Shown: positions 29,919 through 63,744 of the stretch, one piece after another
Layout of the letters: the number at the start of each line of letters is the position of its first letter
Position numbering within the stretch: position 1 is the stretch's first letter
Source of the DNA: Patescibacteria group bacterium
Lineage (GTDB): Bacteria; Patescibacteriota; Minisyncoccia; Phycocordibacterales; UBA9973
NCBI GenBank assembly: GCA_040390725.1
Contig: JAZJXT010000006.1
Location: forward strand, 64,367 to 128,366
Length of the DNA: 64,000 bases
Reading direction: 5' to 3'
Notes under the pieces: generated by a model
The model's input: the letters and a program-made list of their open reading frames with translations, nothing else
Databases searched by the model: none
What the model was told of the DNA's origin: nothing
Made by a program: the position numbers and the translations under genes

Positions 29919-29956
29919 ACATTATCACAAAACTTTTTCAAAAGCAACTTACCTTT

Positions 29957-31705: not shown

Positions 31706-31720
31706 AACCCCATTATATCA

Positions 31721-33415
31721 CTAATAAACCTCCTTCTGATAACACTGCTCGCAGTAAATAATCTCCGGGCGTTCGGGTGCATAACTTGTTTCAAATTCGT
31801 TTTTGCATCCATTATTCATACACTGCCTGTGCCAGAGTTCGCGTGGATTTCTTATCGCAAATCTTTCCTCCCTTCTGCAGGCCGGGCATTTTTGCGGAAT
31901 AGGCATTCCTGTTGCTCGATAAAAAGAAAGTTCGAGGTTTACTATACGAAAAGCGGTGGAACAATTCGGCGATATATTTACGGTACTATTATTTTGAGAA
32001 GAACACTTTATTATTTGTCCCAAAATATCGTCTGTTGTTTCATTTATGGTTTTAGGAATTTGCGCCGTTTCCATGGTAATTTGGTAATTTCTTTCAGGGC
32101 GGTCATACCAAGCATACCCCGCTTTTAATGCTTCGTCTTTTGAAAGTGGGAAGTAATCATAAGCCACAGACTCATTGTATGCAAATGGCGCTATTATTTT
32201 TGGATCAAAAAACTCTCCCCACTCGCCTGTTTTTTTCATATGCTCTATAATTTTTTCTTTGAGCACAAAATATTCTTCTTTTGAATATTTTTTATTTAAA
32301 ATACAATACTCCTTCTGACGCAAACCCATACAGCCAAAGCATTCCGACAAGGTATTGCACATATCACAATAATAAGAATCACTCATATGAAAAGAACTGC
32401 GAATTGAAATTGAATTTCTTATAAAGGCACACCCTTGAATTTGATATGATAGCTCATTGCTTAAAATTTCTGTTATATCACGGCAGTCTTCTGCTTCCCA
32501 TGCATCCTGCAAATAAGCAGTATCTTTATTTCTTCTGCAATTAAAACTTTCTTTTGTGTTGGCTGTATTCTCCAAATAATCTCCTGAAAAATTAACATTA
32601 TTTGACCCGTGATAATATTTTTTCGGCAAACTTAAAGAAAGTTTTTTTATTTCTTTTTTTGCCCACTCAATATTTTCATGATTCCATAAAAAACTTTTTA
32701 ATTTATTTTGATATTCTTCCGGGGAAAGCTGTTTATTAAACCAGCAATTACTTTTGTTTCGCAAATTTACGCACCCAAAACAATTATTGCATCCTCTACA
32801 ATCTTCGGAAAAATAACAAGAAACACAATTTGAGCAATCTTTTAAATAAGATGACTTGGAACATCTAGCGGAACTCATGCACTCATAAGAATATTCAAAT
32901 TTCTCAACCATATAACAATCGGAACAAAAATAACAATCCTCTTGATACCAATTTCCATACATGCATTTTTCACTACCGTTTGTAGCAGACACCATATAGC
33001 AATCTTTATTATTTTGTAGCTGATTTGAATATTCACAATTTTCATTATTTGATCCTACTAATGCCACATGTGGCACAACATCATGTAAGTCTTTAAATTG
33101 CTCAAAAAACGGACGGGAAAAATCAAAATCCCTGCCGAAAGTAGATGCTTCCCATTTATCGCTCCACCAGCATTCATGGCAATACACCGGAAAAATTACA
33201 TCATCTCGATATATTGAAATAATATTTTTTTTGCATAAATCGCAAGTCCTTTTATTTAAACTCCATTCATTTCTATTTAAAAGTCTTTTGATATAACGAC
33301 ACTCTGGGCAAAAAGTCGGTGGAGGGACTTTTACCTTTTCATAAAAACCAAAATCATTCGGCTCGATAACGAAATCTTTTTTACAGCTTTGGCAATTTCT
33401 GTTTTCACTTTGCAT
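31721..33415 (-). CDS. large cytoplasmic Cys-rich zinc-ribbon protein (paralog 2 of 3)
   Basis: 564 aa; same N-terminal and C-terminal motifs and identical 26-aa tail; divergent central region; 15-bp spacing to paralog 1. Confidence 0.7.
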   Translation of the reverse strand: MQSENRNCQSCKKDFVIEPNDFGFYEKVKVPPPTFCPECRYIKRLLNRNEWSLNKRTCDLCKKNIISIYRDDVIFPVYCHECWWSDKWEASTFGRDFDFSRPFFEQFKDLHDVVPHVALVGSNNENCEYSNQLQNNKDCYMVSATNGSEKCMYGNWYQEDCYFCSDCYMVEKFEYSYECMSSARCSKSSYLKDCSNCVSCYFSEDCRGCNNCFGCVNLRNKSNCWFNKQLSPEEYQNKLKSFLWNHENIEWAKKEIKKLSLSLPKKYYHGSNNVNFSGDYLENTANTKESFNCRRNKDTAYLQDAWEAEDCRDITEILSNELSYQIQGCAFIRNSISIRSSFHMSDSYYCDMCNTLSECFGCMGLRQKEYCILNKKYSKEEYFVLKEKIIEHMKKTGEWGEFFDPKIIAPFAYNESVAYDYFPLSKDEALKAGYAWYDRPERNYQITMETAQIPKTINETTDDILGQIIKCSSQNNSTVNISPNCSTAFRIVNLELSFYRATGMPIPQKCPACRREERFAIRNPRELWHRQCMNNGCKNEFETSYAPERPEIIYCEQCYQKEVY

Positions 33416-33430
33416 ATTTTTGTAAAAATT

Positions 33431-33646
33431 TTAAATATAAAAATCTCTATCGGAGATAGCGGATTGCCTGATAATTGAATGCATCGTTCCAACAGGAATT
33501 TCTTTTTTATTCGCCGGAACGATAACGGTCAGAACTTTTCTTTCATATTTTCTATATTTTATATGGCTTCCGTTTTGAGAAATAAAAATAAAACCGTTCT
33601 TTTCTAAAATTTTTACTACTTGCCTTGAAGAAAAAAGTTTAGGCAT
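33431..33646 (-). CDS. hicA: HicA-family mRNA interferase toxin
   Basis: 71 aa; SRQVVKILEKNGFIFISQNGSHIKYRK fits the HicA/YcfA pattern (KxxExxGxxxxRxxGSHxxY). Confidence 0.7.
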   Translation of the reverse strand: MPKLFSSRQVVKILEKNGFIFISQNGSHIKYRKYERKVLTVIVPANKKEIPVGTMHSIIRQSAISDRDFYI

Positions 33647-33857
33647 ATTTTAAATCCATAGAAAATATTTCCGGGCTTCTGACTTCTTGGAATTTTGGAG
33701 CTTTAACATCTTCAAAATAAAGATCAATGGCTTCGCTCAAGTTTTTCAATGCTTCTTTTTTAGTTTTTCCAAAACTTGAAACATCAACATTTAAACACTG
33801 AGAAACATAGTATTTTCCCTCTTTCCAAACTATATTTTTAAGATTAAAATTCTTCAT
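33639..33857 (-). CDS. hicB: HicB-family antitoxin
   Basis: 72 aa; overlaps hicA by 8 bp; EGKYYVSQCLNVDVSSFGKTKKEALKNLSEAIDLYFE matches the HicB N-domain consensus. Confidence 0.65.
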   Translation of the reverse strand: MKNFNLKNIVWKEGKYYVSQCLNVDVSSFGKTKKEALKNLSEAIDLYFEDVKAPKFQEVRSPEIFSMDLKYA

Positions 33858-33895
33858 ATATTAATAATACCAAAAATCTAAAAACAAGTAAATAT

Positions 33896-35596
33896 CTAAT
33901 AAACCTCTTTCTGATAACACTGCTCACAATATATAATTTCTGGTCTTTCGGGCGCATAACTGGTTTCAAATTCATTTTGACATTTGCTTTGATGTTCATG
34001 ATTTTCTTTTTCACACATACACTGCCTGTGCCAAAGTTTATTTGGTCCACGATTTTTTACTCGTCTTGTATGCCTGCATTCGGGACAATTCCTAGGAATT
34101 GGTATTTCCATTCTTTTATAAAAAGAAAGTTCATCCACAATGATACGATAATTTTTATTGCATTCTACGCAAATAAAAACTTCTTTACCAACATCAAAAT
34201 CCGCCGACAAATCTTTTATTCCATCTGGAAAATTTTTCCAATCCACCGTCTCTTTGCCATAAGTCCCCCGCGGAGTATCTTCCCATTTAAAACCTTTTTC
34301 CAAAGCTTGTTCTTTTGTTAATGGAAATTGTTCCATAACACAAGCTTCATTGTAACCAAAACACGAAAGACTAGCTGGGAAAAAATCTCCGTATTCTCCT
34401 TTTTCTTTCATCTGATTTACTATTTTTTCTTTTAAAATTTTATATTCCTCCGGAGAATATTGTTTATTTAAAATACAATATTTTTTCTGACGCATGCCAA
34501 TGCAACCGAAAAGTTCTTGCGAACCCAGACAGTGAAAAGAATATTCCGCAAATGAAGTCCCCCATGTGAGCAAAGTAACAATATTATTCGAAGCTTCTTG
34601 CCCTGAATTCACACATTGATAATTATTAGTAGAAACACGCCCGACTGTATCGCAATCCATATTGTCTTTTGCATTTCTCCAAGCATGCACGCAATATCTG
34701 CAATCTTCTGCTTCATAAGAGTGAAAACAGTGGTGATTATTTTTAACATTAGTCATATAATTTCCGGTAGAATTTACAACATTAAAAACTTCAGCGAATT
34801 TTCTAGGCTTGTCTTTTATAAAATTTTGAAATTCTTTTTTAAAATTTTCTACGCCGGAAAAAGTATCGAGACGAAAAGATTTTAATTTATTTTCATAATC
34901 TTCTTTGGAATATTTTACATTAAAAATACAATGTGATTGCTGGCGTAAATTGATACAACCTAGGCAACTCGTACATCCACGACAATCAAGTAAAAAAGAA
35001 CTATCTATGCAACTATGACATCCTTTTGAAAAACGAAGGTTGTTACAATCAAAACAATCATCAACTTCGTAAGACAATTCAACTTTATTTGTAAAAGCGC
35101 AATCCACTAATTCTTTTGAAAGCTGAATCCAATAACAATTTGTGCAATTTTCATTATTAGAACTTTCAACAATCATATAACAATTTTTATTGTCGGCAGA
35201 AATATTTATATATTCTGAATTTACGCTGCGCACGTGCATCAACCCGATTCTCGGCACAACATTCCAAAGTTCTTCAAATTGTTCTAAAAAAGTTCTATTC
35301 AAATCATATTCTTTTGCATAGTCCTCTCCTCCCCAGCCATCGGCATTCCAACAATCATTACACCATACAGTGTAAGGTTTGTTCGGACTATACATTGAGA
35401 CTTTATCTTTTTTGCATTTATCACAAGCTCTTTTATAAAAAGTTCTTTCATTTCTAAAAGACAATCGCAACTGCGCTCTGCATTCCGGACAAATTTTTGG
35501 CGGAAGCACACCCATTTTTTCATAAAATCCAAAATCATTCGGCTCGATGACAAAATCTTTTTTACAATTTTGGCATACCTTGTTTTCAGCTTGCAT
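33896..35596 (-). CDS. large cytoplasmic Cys-rich zinc-ribbon protein (paralog 3 of 3)
   Basis: 566 aa; same architecture and identical C-terminal tail; starts 5 bp after the rluA stop. Confidence 0.7.
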   Translation of the reverse strand: MQAENKVCQNCKKDFVIEPNDFGFYEKMGVLPPKICPECRAQLRLSFRNERTFYKRACDKCKKDKVSMYSPNKPYTVWCNDCWNADGWGGEDYAKEYDLNRTFLEQFEELWNVVPRIGLMHVRSVNSEYINISADNKNCYMIVESSNNENCTNCYWIQLSKELVDCAFTNKVELSYEVDDCFDCNNLRFSKGCHSCIDSSFLLDCRGCTSCLGCINLRQQSHCIFNVKYSKEDYENKLKSFRLDTFSGVENFKKEFQNFIKDKPRKFAEVFNVVNSTGNYMTNVKNNHHCFHSYEAEDCRYCVHAWRNAKDNMDCDTVGRVSTNNYQCVNSGQEASNNIVTLLTWGTSFAEYSFHCLGSQELFGCIGMRQKKYCILNKQYSPEEYKILKEKIVNQMKEKGEYGDFFPASLSCFGYNEACVMEQFPLTKEQALEKGFKWEDTPRGTYGKETVDWKNFPDGIKDLSADFDVGKEVFICVECNKNYRIIVDELSFYKRMEIPIPRNCPECRHTRRVKNRGPNKLWHRQCMCEKENHEHQSKCQNEFETSYAPERPEIIYCEQCYQKEVY

Positions 35597-35600
35597 AAAA

Positions 35601-37812: not shown

Positions 37813-39051
37813 ATGGCACTTTTTGACGATAAAAAAAAAGATAAAGACCCATTGAAAGACCTCGATGGAGCAGATGATCAGACTTCAATCATAAAATTGG
37901 TTGATGGGCTTATTGAAAGTGCCCAGAAAAATAATGCTTCAGATATTCACCTCGACCCGCAAGAAGATGGTATATTGGTGCGCATGCGCATAGACGGAAT
38001 TTTACAAGATCTTTATCATGTCCCAAAATCCATCCACTCAGAAGTAGTTTCACGTCTTAAAATCTTGACTGGCTTACGTACTGATGAACACCAGATGGCG
38101 CAAGATGGCAGATTTCGACATATTTTCAAAGATAATACTTTTGTGGATATACGTGTCTCTGTCTCGCCGACTTATCACGGAGAAAATGTAGTTCTTCGTT
38201 TACTTTCTGATAAATCACAAAATTACACACTCGATAGTTTGGGTTTTTCGGAAGCAGACCAAGAAAAAATAAAAACTGCTATCAAAAAACCAAACGGAAT
38301 GGTGCTGGCTACAGGTCCGACAGGATCAGGAAAAACAACTACGCTTTATACATTGATAAAAATGTTAAATTCTAAAGAAATTTCCGTACTAACTATCGAA
38401 GACCCTATCGAATACGCTATCGAAAACGTAGAACAAATACAGGTAAATCCTCACGCAGGACTCACCTTTGCAAACGGCCTCCGCACAATTTTGCGACAAG
38501 ACCCAAACATAATAATGGTAGGAGAAATCCGTGACCCGGAGACTGCAACTATCGCCGTCAACACCGCCCTTACCGGTACATTATTATTGTCTTCCCTTCA
38601 CACCAATGACGCTGCGACGACGATGCCGAGACTTTTGGAAATGGGTATCGAGCCATACCTCGTAGCCTCTACTATGAACATTGCTATCGCTCAACGTCTC
38701 GTACGAAAAATCTGTGAGCATTGTAAAAAAGAAAAAAAACTTACAAAAGCAATAGTGGAAAGCCTTTCTCATGTTCAGCTTTCCACCCCGCTCAAAGCCG
38801 GAGAAGTATTTTTTGCGGGAGCAGGTTGCACTAAATGCACCGGCAGTGGATACGCAGGCAGAATCGGCATCAATGAAGTGTTGGTGGTTGACCAAGAAGT
38901 CCGCGATGCTATCTTGGCCCGAGTGCCATCCGGAGAAATAAAAAAAATAGCTATGAAAAATGGCATGACTAGCATGATAGAAGACGGCTTCAATAAAGCT
39001 CGAGCAGGACAAACAACTATCGAAGAAGTCTTGCGAGTCGTTAACGAATAA
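37813..39051 (+). CDS. pilB: type IV pilus assembly ATPase, GspE/PilB family
   Basis: Walker A GPTGSGKTTTLYT, Asp/His boxes, tetra-Cys motif (CEHCKK...CTKCTGSGY) typical of PilB/GspE; short N-terminus. Confidence 0.85.
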   Translation: MALFDDKKKDKDPLKDLDGADDQTSIIKLVDGLIESAQKNNASDIHLDPQEDGILVRMRIDGILQDLYHVPKSIHSEVVSRLKILTGLRTDEHQMAQDGRFRHIFKDNTFVDIRVSVSPTYHGENVVLRLLSDKSQNYTLDSLGFSEADQEKIKTAIKKPNGMVLATGPTGSGKTTTLYTLIKMLNSKEISVLTIEDPIEYAIENVEQIQVNPHAGLTFANGLRTILRQDPNIIMVGEIRDPETATIAVNTALTGTLLLSSLHTNDAATTMPRLLEMGIEPYLVASTMNIAIAQRLVRKICEHCKKEKKLTKAIVESLSHVQLSTPLKAGEVFFAGAGCTKCTGSGYAGRIGINEVLVVDQEVRDAILARVPSGEIKKIAMKNGMTSMIEDGFNKARAGQTTIEEVLRVVNE

Positions 39052-39056
39052 AAATT

Positions 39057-40175
39057 ATGGAAAAAAAAGTAAAAAGTAAAATAATGCAAATTGCTGAAAG
39101 CATATCGAACTGGCTGGAAAATATTTCTTCGCCTTCATTTTCTACAGGCGACAGAGTATTTTTTGCCAAAAGACTTTCTTTTTTGGTTGGATCAGGTCTT
39201 CCTATCTTGGAAAGTTTGCGAATGCTCTCAGAGCAAACCAGATCACGCGGACAAAAGAAAGTTTTTGAAAACGTGATGAGAAACGTGGCAAACGGTGAAG
39301 AGCTTTCAAAAAGCTTAAACCGCTTCCCTAATATTTTCGGCAAATTTGCCATCAATATAATAAGAGTGGGAGAAACTGCCGGCACATTGAATCAAAATTT
39401 AGATTACCTCGCCGAAGAATTAAAAAAAAGACAATTACTTCGCAGAAAAATGGCCAGCACTTTGGTGTATCCTATATTTATCACCGGAGCGACTTTGGCC
39501 ATCACGGCTTTTTTAGTGCTTTATCTTTTCCCGAAAATCATGCCGGTATTTCTGAGTATGAAAATAGCATTACCCTTTTCGACTCGTGTCGTGATGGGTC
39601 TCTCAAACTTTTTACTTCATCACGGCATCAGCTTAATTGTCGGCATCATCGTCATAGTGACGGCTTTAATTGTCACACTTAAATCAAGTGAAAAACTTAA
39701 TTTTTTATTTGACCAATTTTTACTGCGCATGCCTGTCATCGGCAACATAATAAAAGAATACAATATCGCAAATGCCGGCAGAACTCTGGGCTTATTACTA
39801 AAAAGTGGAGTGCAGTTAAATGTTGCCCTTTCTATCACTGCTACAACCACCGAAAATCTAGTCTATAAAAAAGAATGGTACACAATGGAACAAGATACTA
39901 ATCGCGGAGAAAATATTTCCGAGCACTTAAAACATTCTCCAAAACTTTTCTCTGAAATTTTTGGACAAATGATTTCTGTTGGAGAAAAAAGTGGAAATTT
40001 ATCGGACTCATTGATTTACCTTTCTGAGTTTTATGAAAATGAAGTAGATGAATTCTCTAAAGAACTTTCTAGCTTGGTCGAACCAATCTTGATGGTGTTT
40101 ATGGGAGTCATCATCGGATTTATCGCTATCTCCATCATCACGCCGATTTATGATATCACTCAACACTTGCATTAA
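39057..40175 (+). CDS. pilC: type IV pilus inner-membrane platform protein, PilC/GspF family
   Basis: 372 aa; two GspF-like repeats and 3 TM segments; immediately downstream of pilB. Confidence 0.8.
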   Translation: MEKKVKSKIMQIAESISNWLENISSPSFSTGDRVFFAKRLSFLVGSGLPILESLRMLSEQTRSRGQKKVFENVMRNVANGEELSKSLNRFPNIFGKFAINIIRVGETAGTLNQNLDYLAEELKKRQLLRRKMASTLVYPIFITGATLAITAFLVLYLFPKIMPVFLSMKIALPFSTRVVMGLSNFLLHHGISLIVGIIVIVTALIVTLKSSEKLNFLFDQFLLRMPVIGNIIKEYNIANAGRTLGLLLKSGVQLNVALSITATTTENLVYKKEWYTMEQDTNRGENISEHLKHSPKLFSEIFGQMISVGEKSGNLSDSLIYLSEFYENEVDEFSKELSSLVEPILMVFMGVIIGFIAISIITPIYDITQHLH

Positions 40176-40244
40176 AAAAGAAGAGCCTTTTGTCGAAAAA
40201 AATATTCCAACAAAAGGCTCAACAGAGATCAAAATAACTAACTA

Positions 40245-40688
40245 CTAAATAAAATATGGATTTAAATGCCTGGCTAGGAATTCATTGCCTAGCCAGTGCC
40301 AAGCGAGTAGAAAATTTTTACAATTCTCTTCTTCGTCTTCTTGTACCCAAAGACAGGGTACGTAAAGGTTGCCATCGTCATGCATGGATACTGACTTCCA
40401 TGCATATAAAATTTTGTCTCCAAAGAGCTGTAGGAATATATCAGTTCCCTTTTCTTTGATAGCCAAAAGATCTTGTAAGTTTAAACATTTTTTTAGAGCA
40501 TCTATTTTTTTTAACTCTTTAAAAATTGTTTTTCCTTTTACGATCCTGTTTTTATTGTACCAAAAGCCCAGCAAAGACAAATCGTATGTTTCTGGCCCTG
40601 AACATTCCAGCTCTGGGTGTCTAAGCTCTCTTATAAAAAATATATAATCAGGCTTAGTGGAACGGTTAATACTTACGATAAAATTCAT
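40245..40688 (-). CDS. hypothetical protein
   Basis: 147-aa ORF; no recognisable family. Confidence 0.35.
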   Translation of the reverse strand: MNFIVSINRSTKPDYIFFIRELRHPELECSGPETYDLSLLGFWYNKNRIVKGKTIFKELKKIDALKKCLNLQDLLAIKEKGTDIFLQLFGDKILYAWKSVSMHDDGNLYVPCLWVQEDEEENCKNFLLAWHWLGNEFLARHLNPYFI

Positions 40689-40840
40689 AACTTTCGAGTT
40701 AAACTAGACCGAAATTGGTCATAGCTAGAAAATACCCTGTAAGCAAAAGAGGATCTTTTAGCTATAACCAAAATTTTGCAAGTTAAAAATCAAAGGACAA
40801 AAGGGTGCTTCTATAAAAAGACTAATATATATATAGCCGC

Positions 40841-40925
40841 TTGTCAAATTTTCTTGCGGCGCATTCACTAGCTTGGACGGAATGTAATTTAGTAAAAAAA
40901 AATAAAAAAGTGATATAATAAAAAG
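40841..40925 (+). promoter_or_regulatory. conserved promoter/5'UTR cassette, copy A (upstream of the MazF-like gene)
   Basis: ttgtcaaa-N23-cttggacg-gaatgtaatttagtaaaaaaaaataaaaaagTGaTATAATaaa; copy B at 44974-45061 is about 90% identical over the 3' 55 bp; contains an extended -10 (TGnTATAAT). Confidence 0.5.
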
Positions 40926-41339
40926 ATGGAAAAAGACTTTGACAATTGGAATACTCAAAAAAAATTAGTCGAGATAAATAACCGTGAGGTATTCGGCTAT
41001 CCGCGTGAAGTGTGGTGGTGTTCTTTTGGAGTTAATGTTGGCGCCGAAGTTGACGGAAAAAATGAAAATTTTGAACGACCTGTTATAATTATGAGAGTTT
41101 ACAATAAAGAAACTATGCTGGTGTTGCCGACAACAGGAAGAGAAAAGAGGGACAATTACCATATTTCAGTAGAAGTAAATAGTGTAAATGCAAGAACTGG
41201 AGAACATTTCAAGAAAACAGTGTATGTAAAATTAACTCAAGCACGAGTAATAAGCAACAAAAGATTATTAAGAAAAGTTGATGTTATTGGTGAAAAAGAA
41301 TTTGAAATTATTAAAAGTGCTTTTAGAAAATTTACCTAA
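40926..41339 (+). CDS. PemK/MazF-like endoribonuclease toxin (solitary)
   Basis: 137 aa; REVWWCSFGVNVGAEVDGKNENFERPVIIMRV...MLVLPTTGREKR parallels the Kid/MazF motif (GEIWWVDFGxxVGSEQxxRRPVLVVS...VVPLTS). Confidence 0.5.
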   Translation: MEKDFDNWNTQKKLVEINNREVFGYPREVWWCSFGVNVGAEVDGKNENFERPVIIMRVYNKETMLVLPTTGREKRDNYHISVEVNSVNARTGEHFKKTVYVKLTQARVISNKRLLRKVDVIGEKEFEIIKSAFRKFT

Positions 41340-41345
41340 AACATC

Positions 41346-41371
41346 GATACCCCGCATTTCTGCGGGGTATC
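41346..41371. promoter_or_regulatory. GC-rich inverted repeat, terminator hairpin or second CsoR-box-like site
   Basis: GATACCCCGCA-tttc-TGCGGGGTATC (11-bp arms) between the MazF-like stop and the pilin start; shares ATACCCC...GGGGTAT arms with the csoR operator at 14147-14163. Confidence 0.4.
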
Positions 41372-41418
41372 TCGGAGGCCGAAGCCCTAATACATTAAGT
41401 ATATCAAACCACAAACAT

Positions 41419-41895
41419 ATGTCAAATAAAAAAATAAAAAACAAAAAAGGAGGATTTACTTTGATTGAAACCGTAATAGTCCTGGGTGTCATTACAATCG
41501 CAGCGGGGACTTTGATGTTCGTTGATTTGACGAGTTATAATGCTAGCCAATTTCAATCTGCAACAAATAATTTAATTTCTGTTTTACAAACAGCTCGAGC
41601 AAGTTCATTAAACAATGTAGACCAATCCGCGCACGGCGTGGCTATATTCCCTATCGACCACCCGACGAGCTATGTTATTTTTGAAGGTTCAAGTTATTCC
41701 GCAAGATATGCGCCAAAAGACGAAATAATTGATTCCGGTTATGCTGTTGATCTAGGAAATGGTTCCTTAAAAGAAATTGTTTTTGACCAACTAAGCGGAG
41801 ACGTAGATGCAAATGGAAGTATTGTTCTGATAGACCACGTCAGAAAATTAAGTTTCACTATTTCAGTAAACTACGAAGGTAGAATTAGTTGGTAG
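41419..41895 (+). CDS. type IV pilin-like protein (prepilin N-terminus)
   Basis: MSNKKIKNKKGGFTLIETVIVLGVITIAAG carries a prepilin peptidase site (G/FTLIE); the ORF caller's 41278 start is upstream of the palindrome, so start is placed at the Met at 41419. Confidence 0.75.
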   Translation: MSNKKIKNKKGGFTLIETVIVLGVITIAAGTLMFVDLTSYNASQFQSATNNLISVLQTARASSLNNVDQSAHGVAIFPIDHPTSYVIFEGSSYSARYAPKDEIIDSGYAVDLGNGSLKEIVFDQLSGDVDANGSIVLIDHVRKLSFTISVNYEGRISW

Positions 41896-41899
41896 AAAG

Positions 41900-42853
41900 T
41901 TACTTACTTTTTCTGACTAAATTCATTTCATATCTTTGTACCGCGTCAAGTGAAGTTTTCCAATTTCTTCCCTCCTTTACACCTGCAATTTTCCCTGTAC
42001 GAACAAGAAGCCCTAAATACTCCGCATCATATTTTGTTTGTGGAGCAATTTTTGATAAAGATAATAAAGTATTTTCTTTGGTAGAATTTTTTATCGCCTT
42101 TATATATAAATCCAGAGAACGCTCCACTGCCTGAGAAATAAAAAATACAAGATCATCAATTTGACCATTATCCGCTTTTTGCAAAGCTTTGTAATATTTT
42201 ATTCTGTCATTTTTAAGTATGACAACAATCGGATAACCTTCTTTCATTAAAAGAATATTTAAAAGGAGCCTGCTTGCTCGCCCGTTGCCATCACCAAAAG
42301 GATGAATATGGACAAAACGATGTTTAAATTCTGTCGCCAAAGTAATAATATCCGAAGTATCTTTATTTTTTCTGTACCAATTCATTAAATCTCTCATTTG
42401 GTGCGGCACATCAAATGCGGGTGTTGGCATATGCTTGCTTCCGGCAATTCGCACATCATATGTTCGATAAGACCCGGCGTCTACACCGTCAATATTTTGC
42501 ACGATCAGATTATGTAAATTTCTTATAAGCATCTCAGAAAGTGGGATATTTTTTTTACTATCAACCACATCATATAAATAGTCTATGGCTTTTGCTTGAT
42601 TTTTAACCTCCAAATGATCTTTGAGCGGTTTGCCTTTTATGGTAATGCCTTGTTGTAATACGAGCATCGTTTCTCGCAATGTAAGAGTATTCCCCTCTAT
42701 TGCATTTGAATTATAATTCATTTCAATAGAAAATTGTTCACGAAGTTTTTTAACCAAATACGGCGGAAAAGGACGCGCTTTTTTTAGCACAGTTAATTTT
42801 TCAGCTATTCTTTTTAAAATAAGTGTATTTTTCATAAATACCATATTATCCAT
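41900..42853 (-). CDS. Fic/DOC-family protein (AMPylation/filamentation domain)
   Basis: Fic motif HPFGDGNGRASRLL; 317 aa. Confidence 0.85.
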   Translation of the reverse strand: MDNMVFMKNTLILKRIAEKLTVLKKARPFPPYLVKKLREQFSIEMNYNSNAIEGNTLTLRETMLVLQQGITIKGKPLKDHLEVKNQAKAIDYLYDVVDSKKNIPLSEMLIRNLHNLIVQNIDGVDAGSYRTYDVRIAGSKHMPTPAFDVPHQMRDLMNWYRKNKDTSDIITLATEFKHRFVHIHPFGDGNGRASRLLLNILLMKEGYPIVVILKNDRIKYYKALQKADNGQIDDLVFFISQAVERSLDLYIKAIKNSTKENTLLSLSKIAPQTKYDAEYLGLLVRTGKIAGVKEGRNWKTSLDAVQRYEMNLVRKSK

Positions 42854-42976
42854 TAATATCGGATAACTTCATTTAGTATACTATCCGATATTAAGAAAAG
42901 CAAGTAAAAAACTATAAAGCATACCCCCGAACTAAATTGTAATGAATTTTTAGCGCAGGGATGTTATAATAAATGT

Positions 42977-44506
42977 GTGAAAAAAGGTTTTGAAATAAAA
43001 AATAAAAACGTAGCTTGCCCCGCGAAGCTGAAGCGTAGTGGGGGTTTTAGCACTCTCGAGATTATGATTTCTTTTGCCGTGATGGCGGTGGTTTTAACCG
43101 GCGTGGTCTTGGCGAATTTCGGTGCGCAGTATTGGACTATCGCTTCGCAGACTTCCAATGAGGCACTTTATAAAGCAAAAATAAATTTAGAGACTTTAAA
43201 ATCAACTGCCAAACAAAACTTTTTTAATGCTGTCTCTTCTCCTTCTACTCCTGACAATGATACATCGTGTCAGAGCGGAGGGCTTTGTTATAATTTAGAA
43301 AATGCTATTACGGATATTTCTTCTTGCGTAAAATACGCGCAGGTCAATGTGGCCTGGCAAGTTCCCCGCTACCCGCAAATGAAAACTTCCCTTTTTACTT
43401 ATTTAACAAATCCTTCCGAGACAGTGGCACAAGGCGGAGATTGCTTGCTGGCTTGGTTTTCAGAAAATTGGTTGAATCCGAACTATATACATCAATACAG
43501 TATGACAGGAACTCCAACATCGCTCGATACATTAAATGGAACTTCATATATAGGAGAAAGTACTGCGCCGTATTTTGAGGCAACTGATTCAAACGGACCC
43601 ATTTCTTTTAATAATGGATTTACCGGAAGCGCACCTATCAATGCGATAGATGTCGCTCGCGATGAATCAACAGGTAGAACTTATGCGTACGCCGCAGCTT
43701 CCGACCCGACAGAATTGGAAACAATAGATATCACAGACCCGACAAATCCCGCTTTCGTTCCAGGAGGTTCTTATAGTCCACTCGACCCTATCACCAACCA
43801 ACCAATTTTTACAGATGCTGATTCCGGCTGGCGCATAGCATACTACGGACAAAAAATTTACATAGTAACTAAATCAACTTCTCCTCAACTTCATATTTTT
43901 GATGTGAGCAATCCTCTCAGCCCGCAAGAAATAGGCACTGGCACTGCTCTCACCGGGGCTCCAAAAGTTTACGGTATAATAGTGCGCGACCAACAATCAA
44001 GCAACAGCTCATGCCCAAACAATCTTTGTCGTTTTATTTATTTGGCTGAAGAAGGCGGAACAGTAGAGATATTAAATGCCAGTCCTGCAAACAATAGCGT
44101 CACAAGTGTTGCGACGATAAATTTGCCGAATGCTTGCGGAGACGCTCGCTCATTAGCATTACTAGGCAATGTTCTATATGTAGGAGGTATGGGCACTAGT
44201 TGCAATAATTTATTTGCGCTAAATATTGCTGATCCATACACAAGTGTGCCTATCTTGTCTTCCAAGATAGTCGGAAACAATATCGTAAATATAAAAGCCA
44301 CTGCGCCATTTCTATTTTTAGAAACTACTAATTCCATAACTCCGCCAGACTCCGGACTCGACCTAGACGGTGGTCAAGCATACCTCACCAATAACAATAA
44401 TTCTGATTTACAAATCTGGAATTCTGACACAACAAACATGACAAAACTTTCAAGTGTAAATATTTCCGGCGGAACTAATTTTCAAGTAATTTATAGTTCA
44501 AATTAA
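42977..44506 (+). CDS. large pilin-like / pseudopilin protein with beta-rich C-terminal domain
   Basis: N-terminal KRSGGFSTLEIMISFAVMAVVLTGVVLA prepilin-type motif followed by about 480 aa of Asn/Thr/Ser-rich sequence. Confidence 0.6.
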   Translation: MKKGFEIKNKNVACPAKLKRSGGFSTLEIMISFAVMAVVLTGVVLANFGAQYWTIASQTSNEALYKAKINLETLKSTAKQNFFNAVSSPSTPDNDTSCQSGGLCYNLENAITDISSCVKYAQVNVAWQVPRYPQMKTSLFTYLTNPSETVAQGGDCLLAWFSENWLNPNYIHQYSMTGTPTSLDTLNGTSYIGESTAPYFEATDSNGPISFNNGFTGSAPINAIDVARDESTGRTYAYAAASDPTELETIDITDPTNPAFVPGGSYSPLDPITNQPIFTDADSGWRIAYYGQKIYIVTKSTSPQLHIFDVSNPLSPQEIGTGTALTGAPKVYGIIVRDQQSSNSSCPNNLCRFIYLAEEGGTVEILNASPANNSVTSVATINLPNACGDARSLALLGNVLYVGGMGTSCNNLFALNIADPYTSVPILSSKIVGNNIVNIKATAPFLFLETTNSITPPDSGLDLDGGQAYLTNNNNSDLQIWNSDTTNMTKLSSVNISGGTNFQVIYSSN

Positions 44507-44564
44507 AATTGACAAAAATAAAAGCCAGAATAATTATCCTGGCTTTTTAAAATCTAATACTCCA

Positions 44565-44906
44565 CTACTCTGCCTTTTCAAAAAGATCAAAAGAAGTCAT
44601 AAAGGAGCAAGAAGAACCGTCCCCCTTAACATTCAAGCTAAAACCCAAATAATATTCTTCACTATCGGACCAAGGAGAAACCATAAGTATTTCTTTTCTT
44701 GAACTTTTTGTTTTTGGGTCAATAAGAGTTGCAACAAGATACTGGTCCTTATTAGGCTTTAAAACAGGTCGTTCTTTAAACTCAAGGAAAAGAACATCCT
44801 CTCCCTTAAAATCAATACAATGATAAAAAGAATCTGCTAAGCCTGGAACCAAAACATTTTGATTCATTGGAACACTAAAGCGTATTCCTATTATTTTTAC
44901 TTTCAT
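44565..44906 (-). CDS. hypothetical protein
   Basis: 113-aa ORF; no family recognised. Confidence 0.35.
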   Translation of the reverse strand: MKVKIIGIRFSVPMNQNVLVPGLADSFYHCIDFKGEDVLFLEFKERPVLKPNKDQYLVATLIDPKTKSSRKEILMVSPWSDSEEYYLGFSLNVKGDGSSCSFMTSFDLFEKAE

Positions 44907-44973
44907 AAACTTAAAATTTAATTACATGATTCAAACAACTTTTACTAAATTTAGTATATATACATATCGGTAT

Positions 44974-45061
44974 TTGTCAAACCCAACGTATTGGTTCAAT
45001 AACTTGGACGAAGTATAATTTAGTAAAGAAAAAAATAAAAAAATGATATAATAAATACCTT
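44974..45061 (+). promoter_or_regulatory. conserved promoter/5'UTR cassette, copy B (upstream of the NYN gene)
   Basis: ttgtcaaa-N21-cttggacg-aagtataatttagtaaagaaaaaaataaaaaaaTGaTATAATaaa; see copy A at 40841-40925. Confidence 0.5.
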
Positions 45062-45766
45062 ATGGAAATTTCTCAAGAAATTTTAAATAAATTTATAGTC
45101 AGGGAAGACTATTTGGAGTGGGTTAATAAAGAGACGTCCATAATTGTTTATTTAGATTTGACCAATATGTTTCATTGGCAAGATGTTTTAGGTTGGAAAT
45201 TTAGAATTGAGGATGTCATAGGACAGCTTTTTAGTTTCCGAAACATAAAGGAAGTAAAAGTTTATTACGGATTAAACGGAAGAGATATAAATAACTCCGA
45301 AGCGTTTCATAATCGAATAAAAAAGTCCGGTGCTATTCTTAAAACCAAGCCTATGAAATTTATTCAAAAGAATATAAATCAAGGTATGTTTTTTCAGCGT
45401 CGCACACTCACTTTGTTTGATGACGGGGTAAAGGGTAAAATTAACGAACTTATAAATGAATTAAATAAATCAGAAATAATTATTGAAGAACCAAAATGTA
45501 ATTTCGATGTTGAGATGGCAATGGATATGTTAGATGATGCGGATAAGGTGACGGCAGTTATTCTTTTTTCAGGAGATTCAGACATGCGAGAACCATTGGA
45601 AAGATTAAAAGTAAAAGGTAAAAATATCGGCATAGTGGGTGTGCGTGGAAAGGTCGCCAATGAATTACATGTCATTAAAAATAAATATCTTGATTTCGGT
45701 AAGTTTTATACCGGCAAAAGAGTCTATATAAAAAGCGAAAATCCCGCTTTTGGCGGGACCGCGTGA
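45062..45766 (+). CDS. NYN-domain (LabA-like PIN-related) protein
   Basis: IIVYLDLTNMFH...DVEMAMDMLDDADKVTAVILFSGDSDMREPLERLKVKGKNIGIVG matches the NYN/DUF88 pattern of acidic residues. Confidence 0.6.
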   Translation: MEISQEILNKFIVREDYLEWVNKETSIIVYLDLTNMFHWQDVLGWKFRIEDVIGQLFSFRNIKEVKVYYGLNGRDINNSEAFHNRIKKSGAILKTKPMKFIQKNINQGMFFQRRTLTLFDDGVKGKINELINELNKSEIIIEEPKCNFDVEMAMDMLDDADKVTAVILFSGDSDMREPLERLKVKGKNIGIVGVRGKVANELHVIKNKYLDFGKFYTGKRVYIKSENPAFGGTA

Positions 45767-45862
45767 TTAGTAGGATTACTCCTACATTTGGTAGTATAGC
45801 AAAAAAACGTAAAAAGTCAAAAGTTATCCACAAGTGATATAATAAAGGTATAAAAAATTAAA

Positions 45863-46327
45863 ATGAAAAAAAATAACAGACACAATAGAGGTTTTACATT
45901 AATGGAAACGATTATTTATATCGCGCTTTTTGGATTGTTGATGACTGGCACAGTTATCGCAGCTTATAATTTATTGGATAGCGGAGCACGAAATGAAAAA
46001 GCTGTTTCTGTCCAAGAAGAAGGCACATTTTTAAATAGAAAAATAAATTGGGCATTGTTAGGGGCGACAGCCATGGCTACTCCAGACGAAAGTACTCTTT
46101 CTATAACTCGACCAGACTTGGGTGCAAATAATCCTGTTGTTATCCATGAAAATGGTGCAGACATAACTATGACGCGAGGAACCGGTCCCACTACTACATT
46201 AAATAGCGGAGCTTACCCTGTCACCAATATGACATTTCTCATTGGACACTCCGGCAATGCGACTTCTGTCACTGTCACCTACAATGTAGAAAGCACACCA
46301 TTTATTTTTAAATCATATTTACGTTAA
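45863..46327 (+). CDS. type IV pilin-like protein
   Basis: NRHNRGFTLMETIIYIALFGLLMTG prepilin motif; 154 aa; preceded by the partial cassette -10 (agtgatataataaa). Confidence 0.75.
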   Translation: MKKNNRHNRGFTLMETIIYIALFGLLMTGTVIAAYNLLDSGARNEKAVSVQEEGTFLNRKINWALLGATAMATPDESTLSITRPDLGANNPVVIHENGADITMTRGTGPTTTLNSGAYPVTNMTFLIGHSGNATSVTVTYNVESTPFIFKSYLR

Positions 46328-46366
46328 AATGTAGTAAAATATACTAAAGCATTTTAAAAAAAATTA

Positions 46367-48532
46367 ATGCAAAATTTTAGAAAACAAAAGAATAAAAAAA
46401 ACCAGCAAGGATTCATCGCGCTCTTGGCCACAGTCATCATCGGACTTACTCTTTTATCTATGGTCGCGCGTGAAGGTTATGCCGGATGGCACGCGCGTTT
46501 TAATGTCTTGGGAACAGAATCAAAAGAACAAGCGACAGCCCTAGCAGACGGATGTATTGATGAAGCTTTGCTTTCACTCTTGGGTGGTTTCCCTTATCAA
46601 GCCGGCACGACTATTGCTTCACCGATTGGTGACTGTAAAATTTTCCCGATAGACACGGCTACTTCCGGCTATGCTACTTTAAAAGCGCAATCACAAGTAA
46701 ATGATTCATATTCAAATATCTCTGTGGCAATAAATACAAATGACGTTCACTTGGGCTCTATTCCTTCCAATCCAAACTCCGGTACTTTAATAATTCAAAC
46801 ATTGATGGGTAGCGGCGTCAGCACAAAAAATCCCAGCGATTTTACGATGCGCGTATCAGGAATTTCTCCTTCCAAAACTTCTTTTGCCGGATCGGCTGCA
46901 GGCATAGTGGTATATGTATCACCAGGATCCTATAGCATTACCGAAGATGCACTTTCCGGATACAAAGAAAATGGCACAATTGACTGTGCGGGCACAGTCA
47001 GCGGAGGAGACATAAAATCCTGCACTTTTACAAATACTCCCGTCACCACAACTTTCACTCTAGTCGCAAACGTTACAAATAAATATAATGGTTCCTTAAA
47101 ACCTTCCAACTTTCCTCTTTTAATTGATGGCACTCAAGTTGTTTTAGGAAAAGCAAACACTGTCACCACTGGCGCTCACACTGCAAGCATCAGCCAAAGT
47201 TTTCTTACTCAATACAAATACAATGCTTCGACTTGGGGGTATGATTGTGCCAAAACAACATATCCAGATGGGACAAAAGGAACAGTCACTTTAAATACCG
47301 GAGACAACCTGACTTGCGTAGTAAATATTTATGACAACCCCCCGCCGGCACCTGTCTGTGCCAACACAATGATAATGATAGACCGCACCGGCAGTATGGC
47401 TACTATTAATGGCAGTCTTGTGGACTTGCAAAATGCCGGAGTGGCTGCAAGTAGCCTAAAGGATCTTTATGCTTCAGTTAATCCAAACCTTCCAAGACCA
47501 TACCTGGGTATCGGTTCAAATGGTGGACTCGGAATAATAGATAGTTCAACAGCTTCTGTACCAAATAATTCCCCTGCAGGTATAAGAGGATTTTTAACCA
47601 CTACTTATGGCGACCTAGCCAACGCTATAAGTGAAATGGTAAAAGATACCAGCTGCAACAACTCCGGAGGCTCAGGAGGAGATGGTTGCACTAATCTTAG
47701 TTCGGCTATAAATGTGGCTGCAAGTGAACTAAATAATCCTGTATTGGGACCAGGTATCCTTTCCGCAAATGGCAAAGCCAAACAAAAAGTTTTAATTTTA
47801 CTTTCTGATGGTTACACCACGATACCTACCGGAAATTCTACAGAAGAAACTGTTTTTCTTTCTCCAACTAGTAATACAAATGATTCTACCGGTACCAACT
47901 TTGTTAATCCAACAAATGCTTATACAAATACTGATGCCGGAGCATCAGCTTCCGGTGTAATGGGTTCAGGAAATACCAGACAACGATATTCTAATTTTAA
48001 TTTATCTTATCCGACAGACGCTACAAGTCTTTCCGGGATAGAAGTGGATGTAGATGCGAGAGCAGTGAGTACGACTAGCTCTGTGACTACAAACCCGAAT
48101 GGCCTCGGCAATTTTACTACTTGGTCAGTGACCGGCACATCAAATAAAACTACAGCTGTCTCTGATGCTAGTAATGCAACTTTTGTAAATAAAACTTTCA
48201 GCGCGCAAACTTTCTCTGTGGCTGGTGCCGGTGTCCCATCAGATGCAAGTATTATTTCCGTCACTGTAAATGTAGTCGCTGCAGAAAATAATGGCGATGC
48301 GAGCATTCAAATGATGGAAGAAAATGGCTCAGCGCAAGCACTAGAAGGCACAGTTCATAATTTGGCAAATACATTTACGACTTATAGCTGGACCACTACG
48401 ACGAATGCATCCGGCGGAGCTTGGACAGCATCAGAAGTAAATAATTGGACGAATAAATTCGGAGTTTATCAATCCAGCGCCGGAGGTGTAGCATTGGTTT
48501 CAAAATTATACGTAACCGTCAACTACCATTAA
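46367..48532 (+). CDS. pilin-like protein with von Willebrand factor A domain (pilus-associated adhesin)
   Basis: N-terminal QQGFIALLATVIIGLTLL pilin-like hydrophobic segment; vWA MIDAS motif MIMIDRTGSM...LLSDG; C-terminal domain shared with the giant protein (EVNNWTNKFGVYQS). Confidence 0.65.
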   Translation: MQNFRKQKNKKNQQGFIALLATVIIGLTLLSMVAREGYAGWHARFNVLGTESKEQATALADGCIDEALLSLLGGFPYQAGTTIASPIGDCKIFPIDTATSGYATLKAQSQVNDSYSNISVAINTNDVHLGSIPSNPNSGTLIIQTLMGSGVSTKNPSDFTMRVSGISPSKTSFAGSAAGIVVYVSPGSYSITEDALSGYKENGTIDCAGTVSGGDIKSCTFTNTPVTTTFTLVANVTNKYNGSLKPSNFPLLIDGTQVVLGKANTVTTGAHTASISQSFLTQYKYNASTWGYDCAKTTYPDGTKGTVTLNTGDNLTCVVNIYDNPPPAPVCANTMIMIDRTGSMATINGSLVDLQNAGVAASSLKDLYASVNPNLPRPYLGIGSNGGLGIIDSSTASVPNNSPAGIRGFLTTTYGDLANAISEMVKDTSCNNSGGSGGDGCTNLSSAINVAASELNNPVLGPGILSANGKAKQKVLILLSDGYTTIPTGNSTEETVFLSPTSNTNDSTGTNFVNPTNAYTNTDAGASASGVMGSGNTRQRYSNFNLSYPTDATSLSGIEVDVDARAVSTTSSVTTNPNGLGNFTTWSVTGTSNKTTAVSDASNATFVNKTFSAQTFSVAGAGVPSDASIISVTVNVVAAENNGDASIQMMEENGSAQALEGTVHNLANTFTTYSWTTTTNASGGAWTASEVNNWTNKFGVYQSSAGGVALVSKLYVTVNYH

Positions 48533-48539
48533 AATTAAA

Positions 48540-51500
48540 ATGAAATTATTTAAAAAATTAAATTTAATATCACATATTACAATTCTAATAATATTAGGAT
48601 TTGGCTTAATTTCATTTTCTCAAAATGCTTTAGCATCAGCTACTGTGACTGCAGGATTAGGTGGGTCTACAATATCAGCTGATACTAATATCACAAACGG
48701 CACATCGGCAACTTGGACAAATATTTCTACTACTAATCCTACCATAACAGAAGGTTCTTTCGGTGATATTGGATTAGGCACAATTATTTTAAACGCTCCA
48801 AGCGGTTTTCAATTTAATACAACAAGCTCTGTAACGGCAACCGTAACAACAAATGGTAATTGTAGTTCCGGAACTTCAGTAAAATTAAATAGTTCTTTAT
48901 CTCAGACCGTTACTCCGGCAACAGGTACAATCACAATAAATGTGTCACAAGTTTCAAGTGGTTCTGGAAGTGCTTGTAAAAGTATTATTACTTACACAGG
49001 AATAAAAGTCCGCCCATCAACCGGCACTCCGCTCGCATCCGGCAACATTACTAAAAGTTCTTCTTCAACTTCTACAATATCCGGTGTCACAAACGGCTCG
49101 ACAAATTTTGGAACTCTTACTGAATCTGCCGGAGCAGTTTCCGCAGTTTCTGTTTCTCCTGCAAGCCCGACTGTTGCTTCCGGATCAACTCAACAATTCA
49201 CTGCGACTGCCACTGACACTTATGGAAATACATTATCAGGACAAACTTTTACTTGGTCTATAACTAGTGGCCCAGGCAGTATAAATTCAAGCGGACTTTT
49301 TTCTGCTACAACAGCAGGAACTTCTACGGTAAAAGCTTTGGACGGCGCAACTGTTTTCGGAACTGCTACCATTACAACGACTACTGCTCCTGATTTAACT
49401 GCTGGAGCAACCAGCCCGACGACTAGCACCGCAGGTGCAACACAAACTTTCAGTTCTACAATTTCAAACTCCGGTACAGCTTCTACCGGAGCTGGCTTTA
49501 CAACTCTCTTTCAAAAAGCAAATGACTCTATCGGTACTGGAGCAGTTGATGTCGGAACATATGCAAATACCACAATCACCGCAGGTGGAACACAGACTGC
49601 AACTCTTTCGTATGTTTTACCAAATACTGTAGGCACTATATATATGCGAGCTTGCGCTGACAAAAGCTCAATGGCGGACACTGGAACAATTACAGAATCA
49701 AATTCCGGAGGGACAGGAGAAAGTAATAACTGCGGAGCTTGGACGGCGGTCACTTTAACAGCCGGAACTTTAGATCACTTTGCTTTTTCAAATGTCGGCA
49801 CTCAAGTTGCCGGTACGCCTTTCAATGTTACTATAACAGCACAAGATGTAAACAATAATACAGTGACAAGTTATACAGGCTCTACTGCTAAAGTAAATTT
49901 CACGGTTACTAGTGGAACAATTTCACCGACGCAATCCAGCACGTTTACTTCCGGAGTACTTACCAATCAATCCATTACTTTAACCGGCACAAACTCTGCT
50001 ATGATCATAACTGCGACGGATAACGGAGGTACAGGAAAAACTGGAACTTCAAATTCGTTTACAGTAAATGCTGGAGCAGTTTCTGCCATCACAGTATCTC
50101 CCTCTTCAGCCTCATTCACAGCTGGCTCTTCATCTACTCAACAATTTACAGCAACAGCAAAAGATGCAAATAATAATACAAGATCAGGAGATAGTTTTAC
50201 TTGGTCAATAACTGCTGGTGGAGGAAGTATTACTTCGGGAGGAGTTTACACGTCAGGAAATACTGCAGGGAATTTTACTGTAACAGCTACTGACGGAGCA
50301 GTTTCTGGAACTGCTACTGTGACAATCACAGCCGGCGCAGTCGCAAACGTTACCGTCTCCCCCGCAAGTGCGACTGTTACTGCCGGTTCTACTCAACAAT
50401 TTACCGCGACAGCCAGAGACTCCGGTGGAAATACCGTCTCAGGACAAACTTTTACTTGGTCAGTCAGTGGAGGACTGGGCACAATAAGTTCAACTGGTTT
50501 ATACACAGCCAAAACTGCCGGAACATTTACAGTCACAGCTACAGATAATTCTATTTCCGGAAATGCTTCAGTAACTGTAAATGCTGGAACATTTACTAAA
50601 TTGCAAATACTTCTTCCTGGAGAGACAGCTTCCGCGGGAAGTTCTACGGGAAAAACTGGGACACCTTCTGCTCAAACTGCAGGCGTTTCATTTTCAGTCA
50701 TAGTAAATGGAGTTGATGCAAACTGGAATGTTGTAAGTTCTGCAATAGATACCGTAAGTATTACTTCTACAGATGGTAGTGCAACACTACCGGTAACGTC
50801 TGCATTAATAGGAGGCACAAAAACTTTTTCTGTAACACTAAATACAGTCGGAACAAAAACAATTACCGCGAGTGATACTGTATCCCACAGTGGTATCACT
50901 GCAAACACTTCACCATCAATAACTGTAAATGCCGGAGTAGTCGCTACAGTAACCGTCTCCCCTGCATCAACATCTGTCACACAGGGCTCAATAACAACAA
51001 CTCAATTCACCGCTACATCAAAAGATTCTGCAGGTAATACAATTTCTGGAGACACTATAAATTGGTCAGTGAGTACAAATGGAGGTTCGATTACTTCTGG
51101 AGGACTTTACACACCCAGCACCACTGCAGGCTCGTACACAATTACAGCTACTGACGGATCTGTTTCCGGAACTGCAACTGCGACAATAAATGCAGCACCT
51201 GATTTAACAATCGGCGCAATAAATCCAACTTCAGTAAATGCAGGGTCTGCTCAAACTTACACTGCAACAATCACAAACCTGGGAGGTGGTTCCACTGGAG
51301 CAACATTTACAACTCTCTTCCAAAGCGCAACTGATGCAAATGGAACAGGAGCTGTAGACTTAGGCACTGATGCCGATGCAATTTTATCCGGAGGCGGAAC
51401 ACAAGCAACAACATTTTCATATACAAATAATACTGCAGGAACTTTCTATATGCGTGCTTGCGCTGATAAAAGTTCCGCTGGAAATGCAGGTGTAATTTCA

Positions 51501-63737: not shown

Positions 63738-63744
63738 GTATATA

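Follow-up and report, generated by a model that had tools for sequence, protein, structure and literature searches.

Within a 64,000-nucleotide stretch of the genome of a Patescibacteria group bacterium (contig JAZJXT010000006.1, positions 64,367 to 128,366 of the forward strand; hereafter the window, whose own numbering is used throughout), two genes for nucleases of different families, one MazF/PemK-like and the other with an NYN domain, lie among the pilin genes of a pilus cluster and are preceded by nearly the same sequence. How did one upstream sequence come to stand in front of two such genes, and what are these genes? A sequence-only reading of the window had described the shared sequence as a promoter/5' untranslated region (5'UTR) cassette of about 90 bp. 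Our analysis favors, with a probability of roughly 0.55, the reading that it is a promoter copied during module installation and placed ahead of two RNase toxin modules that have their own small RNAs (sRNAs).

Extent and nature of the shared promoter segment

Copy T1 of the segment (40864..40922, plus strand) consists of a 47-nt core and an extended -10 element (40911-40922), and copy T2 (44995..45055, plus strand) has its extended -10 at 45044-45055. In a local Smith-Waterman alignment of the two, 53 of 61 columns are identical with one 2-nt gap, and the score of 81 compares with 21.2 +/- 3.3 (maximum 34) for 500 shuffles. By blastn, the pair reaches E=4.5e-16 and is the sole significant similarity between the two accessory blocks that hold the nuclease genes. 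The boundaries are sharp, the 3' edge lying 3 nt (MazF-like) or 6 nt (NYN) short of the start codon. With the -10 box excluded, the 60 nt upstream at both sites score 60; when all 15 TGNTATAAT sites of the window are compared in pairs, the runner-up scores 29 and the median is 13. A window scan found the 25-nt GC-containing core CTTGGACG..AATTTAGTAAA at T1 and T2 only (≤3 mismatches, 0 expected). The near-identity first noticed ahead of both genes is thus confirmed, far exceeding chance expectation and surpassing every other promoter pair of the window, and its interpretation as a duplicated regulatory unit agrees with a segment that is discrete, promoter-like and the only significant likeness of the two blocks.

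The final 12 nt of the segment, TGATATAATAAA, are the organism's generic extended -10 box of leaderless genes. This box occurs at 13 sites in the window at ≤1 mismatch (2.0 expected), typically 6 nt ahead of the start codon, and it is native before the gene of a 509-aa pilin-like protein (p509) in a related genome. What had been taken for a partial third copy, before the next pilin gene (45863-46327, plus strand), is this generic box at 45835..45846 (plus strand), as judged by motif enrichment and the related genome. Within the segment, TGATATAAT, a TGnTATAAT-type sigma-70 extended -10, occupies 40911-40919 and 45044-45052. The ATG follows it by 6 nt in the MazF-like gene and by 9 nt in the NYN gene, the same leaderless spacing as at other window genes, so both mRNAs are predicted to be essentially leaderless, with no real 5'UTR in the cassette. 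The shared unit is also shorter than first described. Only about 60 bp are strongly shared, and the distal 'ttgtcaaa/tatatata' block scores 21, against a top score of 23 for unrelated promoter pairs; it is better read as the -35/-10 of a minus-strand promoter, TTGACA-N16-TATACT, at 44980..44953. A homology spanning about 125 bp and including TTGTCAAA was rejected, as it showed no excess over background.

Distribution of the segment

The 47-nt core occurs twice within the 64-kb window and gave 0 matches in the genome, metagenome and viral contig collections, among which the source genome is not included; the search for further copies that the sequence-only reading had suggested thus returned the two known copies and, from the three collections, nothing. 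Ahead of 34 NYN orthologues (130 nt compared) and 35 MazF-like homologues (120 nt compared), the sequences up to the ATG are unrelated to the segment and, within each set, to one another. Comparison of T1 and T2 with every fetched locus by blastn returned A-runs and -10 boxes only, and no inverted repeats bounding the segment were found in the window. Since the core is absent at about 80 MazF-like/NYN loci and from the three collections, the segment is, by sequence comparison, a lineage-specific duplication and part of neither gene family's conserved unit. With two copies and no terminal repeats, it shows no sign of being the mobile unit that had been considered.

The two nuclease genes

The MazF/PemK-like RNase gene (40926..41339, plus strand) encodes 137 aa and matches PF02452 (PemK/MazF) with 47.1 bits (cut-off 23.1). 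Its family profile matches the structures of MazF (4OF1, 4MZM) and EndoA (1NE8) weakly (E~1e-4), and the profile alignment pairs ERPV with vRPV and includes the Thr of pITS. There are 236 homologues which, where named, belong almost entirely to Patescibacteria. The NYN-domain (PIN-like) nuclease gene (45062..45766, plus strand) encodes 234 aa and matches PF01936 with 57.6 bits (cut-off 24.2). Its best 120 homologue clusters are 76-82% identical across many Patescibacteria classes, and its 54 genomic loci span Giovannoni-, Uhr-, Falkow-, Nealson-, Lipton-, Wolfe-, Vogel- and Gribaldobacteria. Prepilin N_methyl motifs occur in the flanking genes. The placement of two RNase-fold genes between pilin genes was read correctly from the sequence.

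Neither a MazE/PemI-like gene nor any other conserved protein partner accompanies these nucleases. No plus-strand ORF of at least 40 aa lies wholly inside 40689-40925 (the ORF at 40369-40647 stops before this region), no MazE/PemI-like gene was found beside the MazF-like gene here or in about 35 homologous loci, and no conserved protein partner was found on either side of the toxin genes. Since a conserved protein partner is lacking, the 'solitary' MazF-like toxin most plausibly has an RNA partner.

Predicted convergent small RNAs at the 3' ends of the nuclease genes

A small RNA, sRNA-M, is predicted at 41336..41393 on the minus strand from a covariance model, covariation and fold, with its 3' end abutting the MazF stop. 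Two hairpins make up its structure, one with cUUCGg and the other of 11 bp and capped by GNRA; CCGAGA links them, and a U-run follows the second. The promoter scan placed its promoter, TTGACA-N16-TATACT with a TG extension, at 41398..41425 on the minus strand (11 of 12 matches), and this position is kept in about 30 MazF loci. The covariance model, R1, scores 83 bits at 41336-41393 on the minus strand, its sole match in the window. Elsewhere, it identifies 31 minus-strand sites; all checked ones are convergent to, and right after, a MazF-like gene, and some loci carry two or more sites. Among the MazF RNAs, 99.1% of cells are paired and 8 of the 10 pairs of hairpin A are compensatory; in the control, slid partners pair in ≤53% and no shuffle attains the observed value. 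The fold of sRNA-M has a predicted energy of -27.1 kcal/mol (z=-4.1). The layout of the MazF-like 3' region (hairpin A, CTCGGA linker, hairpin B and minus-strand promoter) is common to loci down to about 30% protein identity, the promoter appearing as TATAnCA...GTCAA on the plus strand, which is TTGAC-N16-18-TGnTATA on the minus strand. MAFFT combined with RNAalifold misaligned the hairpins across MazF subfamilies; a subfamily alignment, a manual structure and the covariance model were used. The description of the MazF-like gene as solitary therefore stands as far as a conserved protein antitoxin is concerned and fails on the conserved convergent sRNA gene at its 3' end.

The NYN gene has a counterpart, sRNA-N, predicted at 45730..45787 on the minus strand from conservation, covariation and fold, whose span takes in the final ~37 nt of the NYN ORF. 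It consists of two hairpins joined by the invariant linker CUAAUCACGCGG, the first capped by GNRA and the second a terminator with a U-run, and the promoter scan placed its promoter, TTGACT-N16-TATACT with a TG extension, at 45793..45820 on the minus strand. A matching promoter in fixed register is present at 40 of 42 NYN loci, with the TG in 36 of the 42. The NYN 3' element takes the form AGCGAAAATCCCGC-loop-GCGGGACCGCGTGATTAGTAGG-loop-CCTACA, followed by the minus-strand promoter, at 43 distinct loci. In the NYN RNAs 98.8% of cells are paired, 5 of the 6 pairs of hairpin B are compensatory, and the fold of sRNA-N has a predicted energy of -23.1 kcal/mol (z=-4.8). The element is kept at four loci where the ORF stops short of it (numbered L005, L025, L032 and L039 in our set) and is therefore not conserved as coding sequence. 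NYN homologues labelled Omnitrophota or Planctomycetales (L042-L044, L048 and L054; 52-59% identity) keep the hairpin-CCGCGTG-hairpin arrangement and the minus-strand promoter with covarying stems, so the pairing of NYN gene and sRNA reaches beyond Patescibacteria.

Just past the -35 of sRNA-N lies a DnaA-box-like 9-mer, TTATCCACA (45824..45832, plus strand). Such a 9-mer (TTATCCACA or TGTGGATAA, ≤1 mismatch) is present at 32 of 42 NYN loci (L002-L051), 16 in forward and 16 in reverse orientation, compared with 2.6% of random 70-nt windows. It also follows some MazF modules (L056, L058 and L061).

Several features assign both RNAs to the minus strand. In a blind scan of 40200-46400, the top three sigma-70 promoters were all on that strand (44980..44953, 41425..41398 and 45820..45793), as were the top two terminators (41371..41346 and 45760..45740); the convergent sRNA units use two of these three promoters and both terminators. 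Counts of G-U versus A-C cells, 19:0 for the MazF RNAs and 10:1 for the NYN RNAs, favor the minus strand. The GNRA loops (35 of 43 for NYN) or UUCG loops read correctly, and U-runs follow the hairpins, on this strand only. No Rfam covariance model matched 38000-48000 at E≤1, and a literature search found no description of these modules. The viral contig collection gave no match to either sRNA motif, on which ground a phage origin of the modules was rejected.

As for their role, sRNA-N would be antisense to 37 nt of the NYN coding sequence, and sRNA-M would be complementary to the read-through 3' region of the MazF-like gene. Because a purely antisense role would not require near-invariant linkers, the CCGAGA and CACGCGG linkers suggest binding of the sRNAs by protein, similar to type III systems.

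Mobility of the modules and duplication of flanking sequence

The identity of 76-82% among NYN proteins across classes contrasts with ≤61% for PilC. This far stronger conservation of the NYN and MazF-like proteins, together with neighbours that differ everywhere, argues for horizontal mobility of both modules. The two kinds of module co-occur repeatedly, in L058, in L002 and in 6 more loci, with L061 and L090-93 among the loci concerned. In a 2.1-kb Logan contig from SRR22388118 (L058) and at 4001-5450 of L002, MazF-like and NYN modules form tandem arrays in which each module has its own convergent sRNA.

Local direct repeats flank 6 of 31 NYN modules and 4 of 32 MazF modules (L002, L058, L078 and L106; z≥17), with a fifth, weaker MazF match in L060 (z 6.8). 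They measure 32-150 bp and are roughly 80-94% identical. In L058, a truncated signal-peptide/LamG-like ORF and the -10 sequence TGTTACAATA stand ahead of both the MazF-like and the NYN gene, and the homology of this shared flank stops directly after the -10. Each module of L002 is followed by about 60 bp copied from the 3' end of the GIY-YIG gene upstream. The repeat of L005 is the downstream gene's promoter, and that of L034 is the 5' end of an hsdS-like gene, as judged by translated sequence. These cases suggest that the local promoter or 5' region is often doubled when a module is installed, one copy serving the module and the other staying with the host gene.

Insertion of the MazF block between pilC and a pilin gene

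The closest relative by PilC is a 3.4-kb contig, L113 (87% identity; the next relative reaches ≤61%), in which pilB, pilC and the orthologs of the pilin gene at 41419 and of p509 are all contiguous. By blastn, homology between the window and L113 ends at 40179 and restarts at 41427. The intervening 1247 bp (insertion 1, 40180..41426) hold a terminator hairpin (stems 40183-40193 and 40210-40220), a minus-strand ORF of 147 aa (p147), T1, the MazF-like gene and sRNA-M. Since pilC, the pilin gene and the next gene are contiguous in L113, the MazF block is, from this comparison, an insertion relative to L113, in agreement with the insertion between pilin genes proposed at the outset; the junctions of the block show only a 7-nt A-rich repeat.

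The prepilin gene that follows (pilin158; 158 aa, 41419..41895, plus strand, with N_methyl motif) is an ancestral operon gene with an ortholog in L113, where the pilin start overlaps the end of pilC. The original start survives in the window as a 33-codon stub (40150-40251, ATG at 40150) that overlaps the end of pilC. The present gene starts at ATGTCAA (41419-41425), which is the -35 of sRNA-M plus its flanking T, read on the opposite strand. ORFs starting with ATGTCAA follow MazF modules in many other loci, including another prepilin gene in L075.

Origin of the two copies

If the segment was copied when the modules were installed, each copy would front a promoterless, horizontally mobile toxin module, with the MazF-like RNase behind one and the NYN nuclease behind the other. 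RNA polymerase with the housekeeping sigma factor would use TGATATAAT and start at, or 2-3 nt before, the ATG, yielding leaderless toxin mRNAs at similar strength from both copies. Transcripts from T1 would probably read through into pilin158, which insertion 1 has severed from pilC, because pilC now has a terminator behind it and the MazF-like gene has none on the plus strand. Each toxin would be kept in check by its own ~57-nt sRNA, a structured RNA with a near-consensus convergent promoter, which may pair with the 3' end of the toxin transcript in a type I-like manner and, additionally or instead, bind the RNase in a type III-like manner. The second copy of the segment would have arisen by duplication or recombination at module installation.

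A number of points weigh against this account. T1 and T2 are 4.1 kb apart, in separate accessory blocks with ancestral genes between them; because they do not flank one module, the duplication mechanism is drawn by analogy from the modules of other genomes that are flanked by local direct repeats. Neither module is followed by a long copy of the segment, only by 12-15 nt of generic -10. No -35 match is present in the 47-nt core, which stands 2 bp closer to the -10 in one copy than in the other and may be a factor-binding site rather than a core promoter. The transcription starts, the sRNAs and the toxicity are all predictions. Moreover, L113 ends before the transition from p509 to the following pilin gene, so that the comparison extends only through p509, and of a contig at least 130 kb long the copy search covered 64 kb. 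An arrangement in which T1 and T2 are the direct repeats at either end of a single 4-kb insert was rejected, as pilin158 and p509 between them are ancestral operon genes.

Three other explanations were weighed. The 47-nt core could be the binding region of one transcription factor, kept by selection to co-regulate both toxin genes and possibly p147, the second divergent ORF p113 and perhaps the pilus genes, with duplication only as its route of arrival. Each copy occupies the gap that separates two divergent promoters, spanning -15 to -63 relative to the plus-strand start and staying upstream of the -35 on the minus strand, and the copies are 87% identical amid unrelated surroundings; the missing -35 match and the 2-bp indel speak against a spacing-critical role in the core promoter. 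We nevertheless regard such a site as unlikely to be the whole explanation, although it deserves serious consideration: the two core copies have no clear dyad or direct-repeat symmetry in common, the half-site TTTAGTA is near chance across the window (15 versus 8.4 expected), no regulator gene is adjacent, and two copies are too few to test selection. Less credible is the idea that the segment is the backbone of a composite mobile cassette (terminator hairpin, minus-strand ORF, promoter, toxin and sRNA) that was imported or transposed twice. The two blocks do agree in order and in size (~1.25-1.3 kb): both open with a bidirectional terminator hairpin (40183-40220 and 44520-44547) and close with the sRNA promoter, and block 1 is missing in L113. 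However, the blocks share nothing beyond 60 bp, p147 bears no relation to p113, itself an orphan, terminal inverted repeats and a recombinase are lacking, the core has 0 matches in any collection, and the A-rich 7-mer is all that the block 1 junctions offer.

A likeness arising from generic AT-rich promoter composition, the outcome that the sequence-only reading itself had named as fatal to it, is highly improbable. The generic -10 does account for 12 of the 60 nt and an A-run for about 15 nt, but without its generic part the core still reaches double the score of the runner-up promoter pair, and its 25-nt GC-containing part is confined to the two sites (0 expected). Copying at installation, a regulator site and a composite cassette are not mutually exclusive.

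Comparison with known toxin-antitoxin systems

In type I toxin-antitoxin loci such as txpA/RatA and bsrG/SR4 of Bacillus subtilis and par/Fst of Enterococcus, a convergent antisense RNA overlaps the 3' end of the toxin gene. The modules described here resemble them in the predicted short, structured, terminator-ended convergent RNA, which would have a strong promoter and complementarity to the 3' end of the toxin transcript, in the lack of a protein antitoxin and in their patchy, horizontally mobile distribution. They differ in that the known toxins are small (<60 aa) hydrophobic peptides, whereas here they are nucleases of 137 and 234 aa, and in that the sRNA sequence is far more conserved than a purely antisense role requires, with invariant CACGCGG and CCGAGA linkers.

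The modules may also be compared with the type III systems ToxIN, CptIN and TenpIN (PMC3401426, PMC5086642). Common to both are an endoribonuclease toxin of Kid/MazF-like fold and a structured non-coding RNA that diversifies with the toxin subfamily, neutralisation by the RNA being predicted in the present case. Known type III antitoxins are tandem repeats located upstream on the same strand and processed by the toxin, whereas the RNA in the window is single-copy, downstream and on the opposite strand, and the toxins belong to PF02452 or NYN rather than ToxN. No tandem RNA repeats of the type III kind were found in the window. With the type II systems MazEF/PemIK, the MazF-like module shares a toxin of the PemK/MazF Pfam family with aligned RPV and Thr motifs; unlike them, it has no adjacent MazE/PemI-like gene, and its upstream sequence is unrelated in every locus. 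From these comparisons, the modules appear to follow type I and type III logic.

With regard to the segment itself, insertion-duplication of the Campbell type likewise places one promoter sequence before an inserted gene and another gene, and in L005, L034 and L058 the module takes the promoter or 5' end of its target and a copy restores the target. In the window, by contrast, no single insert is flanked by the copies; each fronts a different inserted gene, the two lying 4.1 kb from each other, and the repeats range from 7 to 150 bp with no recombinase evident. A mobile promoter resembling miniature inverted-repeat transposable elements (MITEs) would be dispersed in multiple copies with terminal inverted repeats and target-site duplications, whereas the window segment is present in two copies only and has no inverted repeats at its bounds.

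We tentatively propose, at somewhat less than even odds, that the MazF-like and NYN modules of Patescibacteria (for NYN, also of Omnitrophota) form an undescribed toxin-antitoxin-like class, in which a full-size RNase is coupled to one structured convergent sRNA in place of a protein antitoxin, the units are promoterless and mobile, and the cassette is an installation footprint. As part of this proposal, modules would land at promoters or 5' ends, often of pilin or secreted-protein genes, duplicating local sequence; a DnaA-box-like site would flank the NYN sRNA promoter, and modules could donate an ATGTCAA start codon.

Other features of the window

The two divergent ORFs of the accessory blocks, p147 (40245..40688, minus strand; function unassigned) and p113 (113 aa, 44565..44906, minus strand, with the promoter at 44980..44953 from the promoter scan), have no Pfam, NCBIfam or PADLOC match. 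For p113, no relative was found among 1.84 billion representative proteins; it is flanked by a near-consensus promoter and a bidirectional terminator (44520-44547), and either it is an orphan gene or the ORF is no gene at all. Single-sequence structure models of p147 and p113 were unusable (pLDDT 38 and 50). Both were rejected as cognate protein antitoxins, being mutually unrelated, without a family match and absent from all fetched loci. PDB searches made with single sequences gave no match.

A second insertion (~41899-42961), missing in L113, carries a Fic-domain gene identified with Pfam (41900..42853, minus strand). A perfect 10-bp inverted repeat, ATATCGGATA ... TATCCGATAT, with a 17-nt spacer (42856-42865/42883-42892) lies directly upstream of the minus-strand Fic start and may be an operator. 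The Fic block abuts the -10 of the promoter of p509, an LVIVD protein by Pfam (42977-44506). The prepilin gene at 45863-46327 was recognized by Pfam and its N_methyl motif. Downstream of the pilin genes, 48540-54149 encodes an 1869-aa surface protein made of internal repeats of ~250-950 nt (D2, D5, D6, D8 and D10).

Farther away, the region 29900-35600 contains three tandem paralogous units of ~1.7-2.2 kb (families D1, D3, D4, D7, D9 and D11; 60-87% identity to the reference copy). At ~59740-60762 (plus strand) and 62655-63779 (minus strand), Pfam marks on an overlapping Logan contig identified a Cas1 homologue and a PilM-like gene, and there may be a CRISPR-Cas locus near the right end of the window.

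Biological meaning

Taken alone, the cassette is a modest, lineage-specific curiosity, and its value lies in the sRNA-partnered nuclease families to which it points. Two widespread families of 'orphan' nuclease toxins of the ultra-small Patescibacteria travel with a conserved, strongly covarying small-RNA gene. Should the RNAs prove to be antitoxins, PemK/MazF and NYN would be added to the families of toxins under RNA control, the missing MazE partners would be explained, and candidate sRNAs would become available in a phylum with almost no known regulatory RNA. The locus would then also be an example of modules that colonise operons, here those of type IV pili and competence, by capturing and duplicating host promoters.

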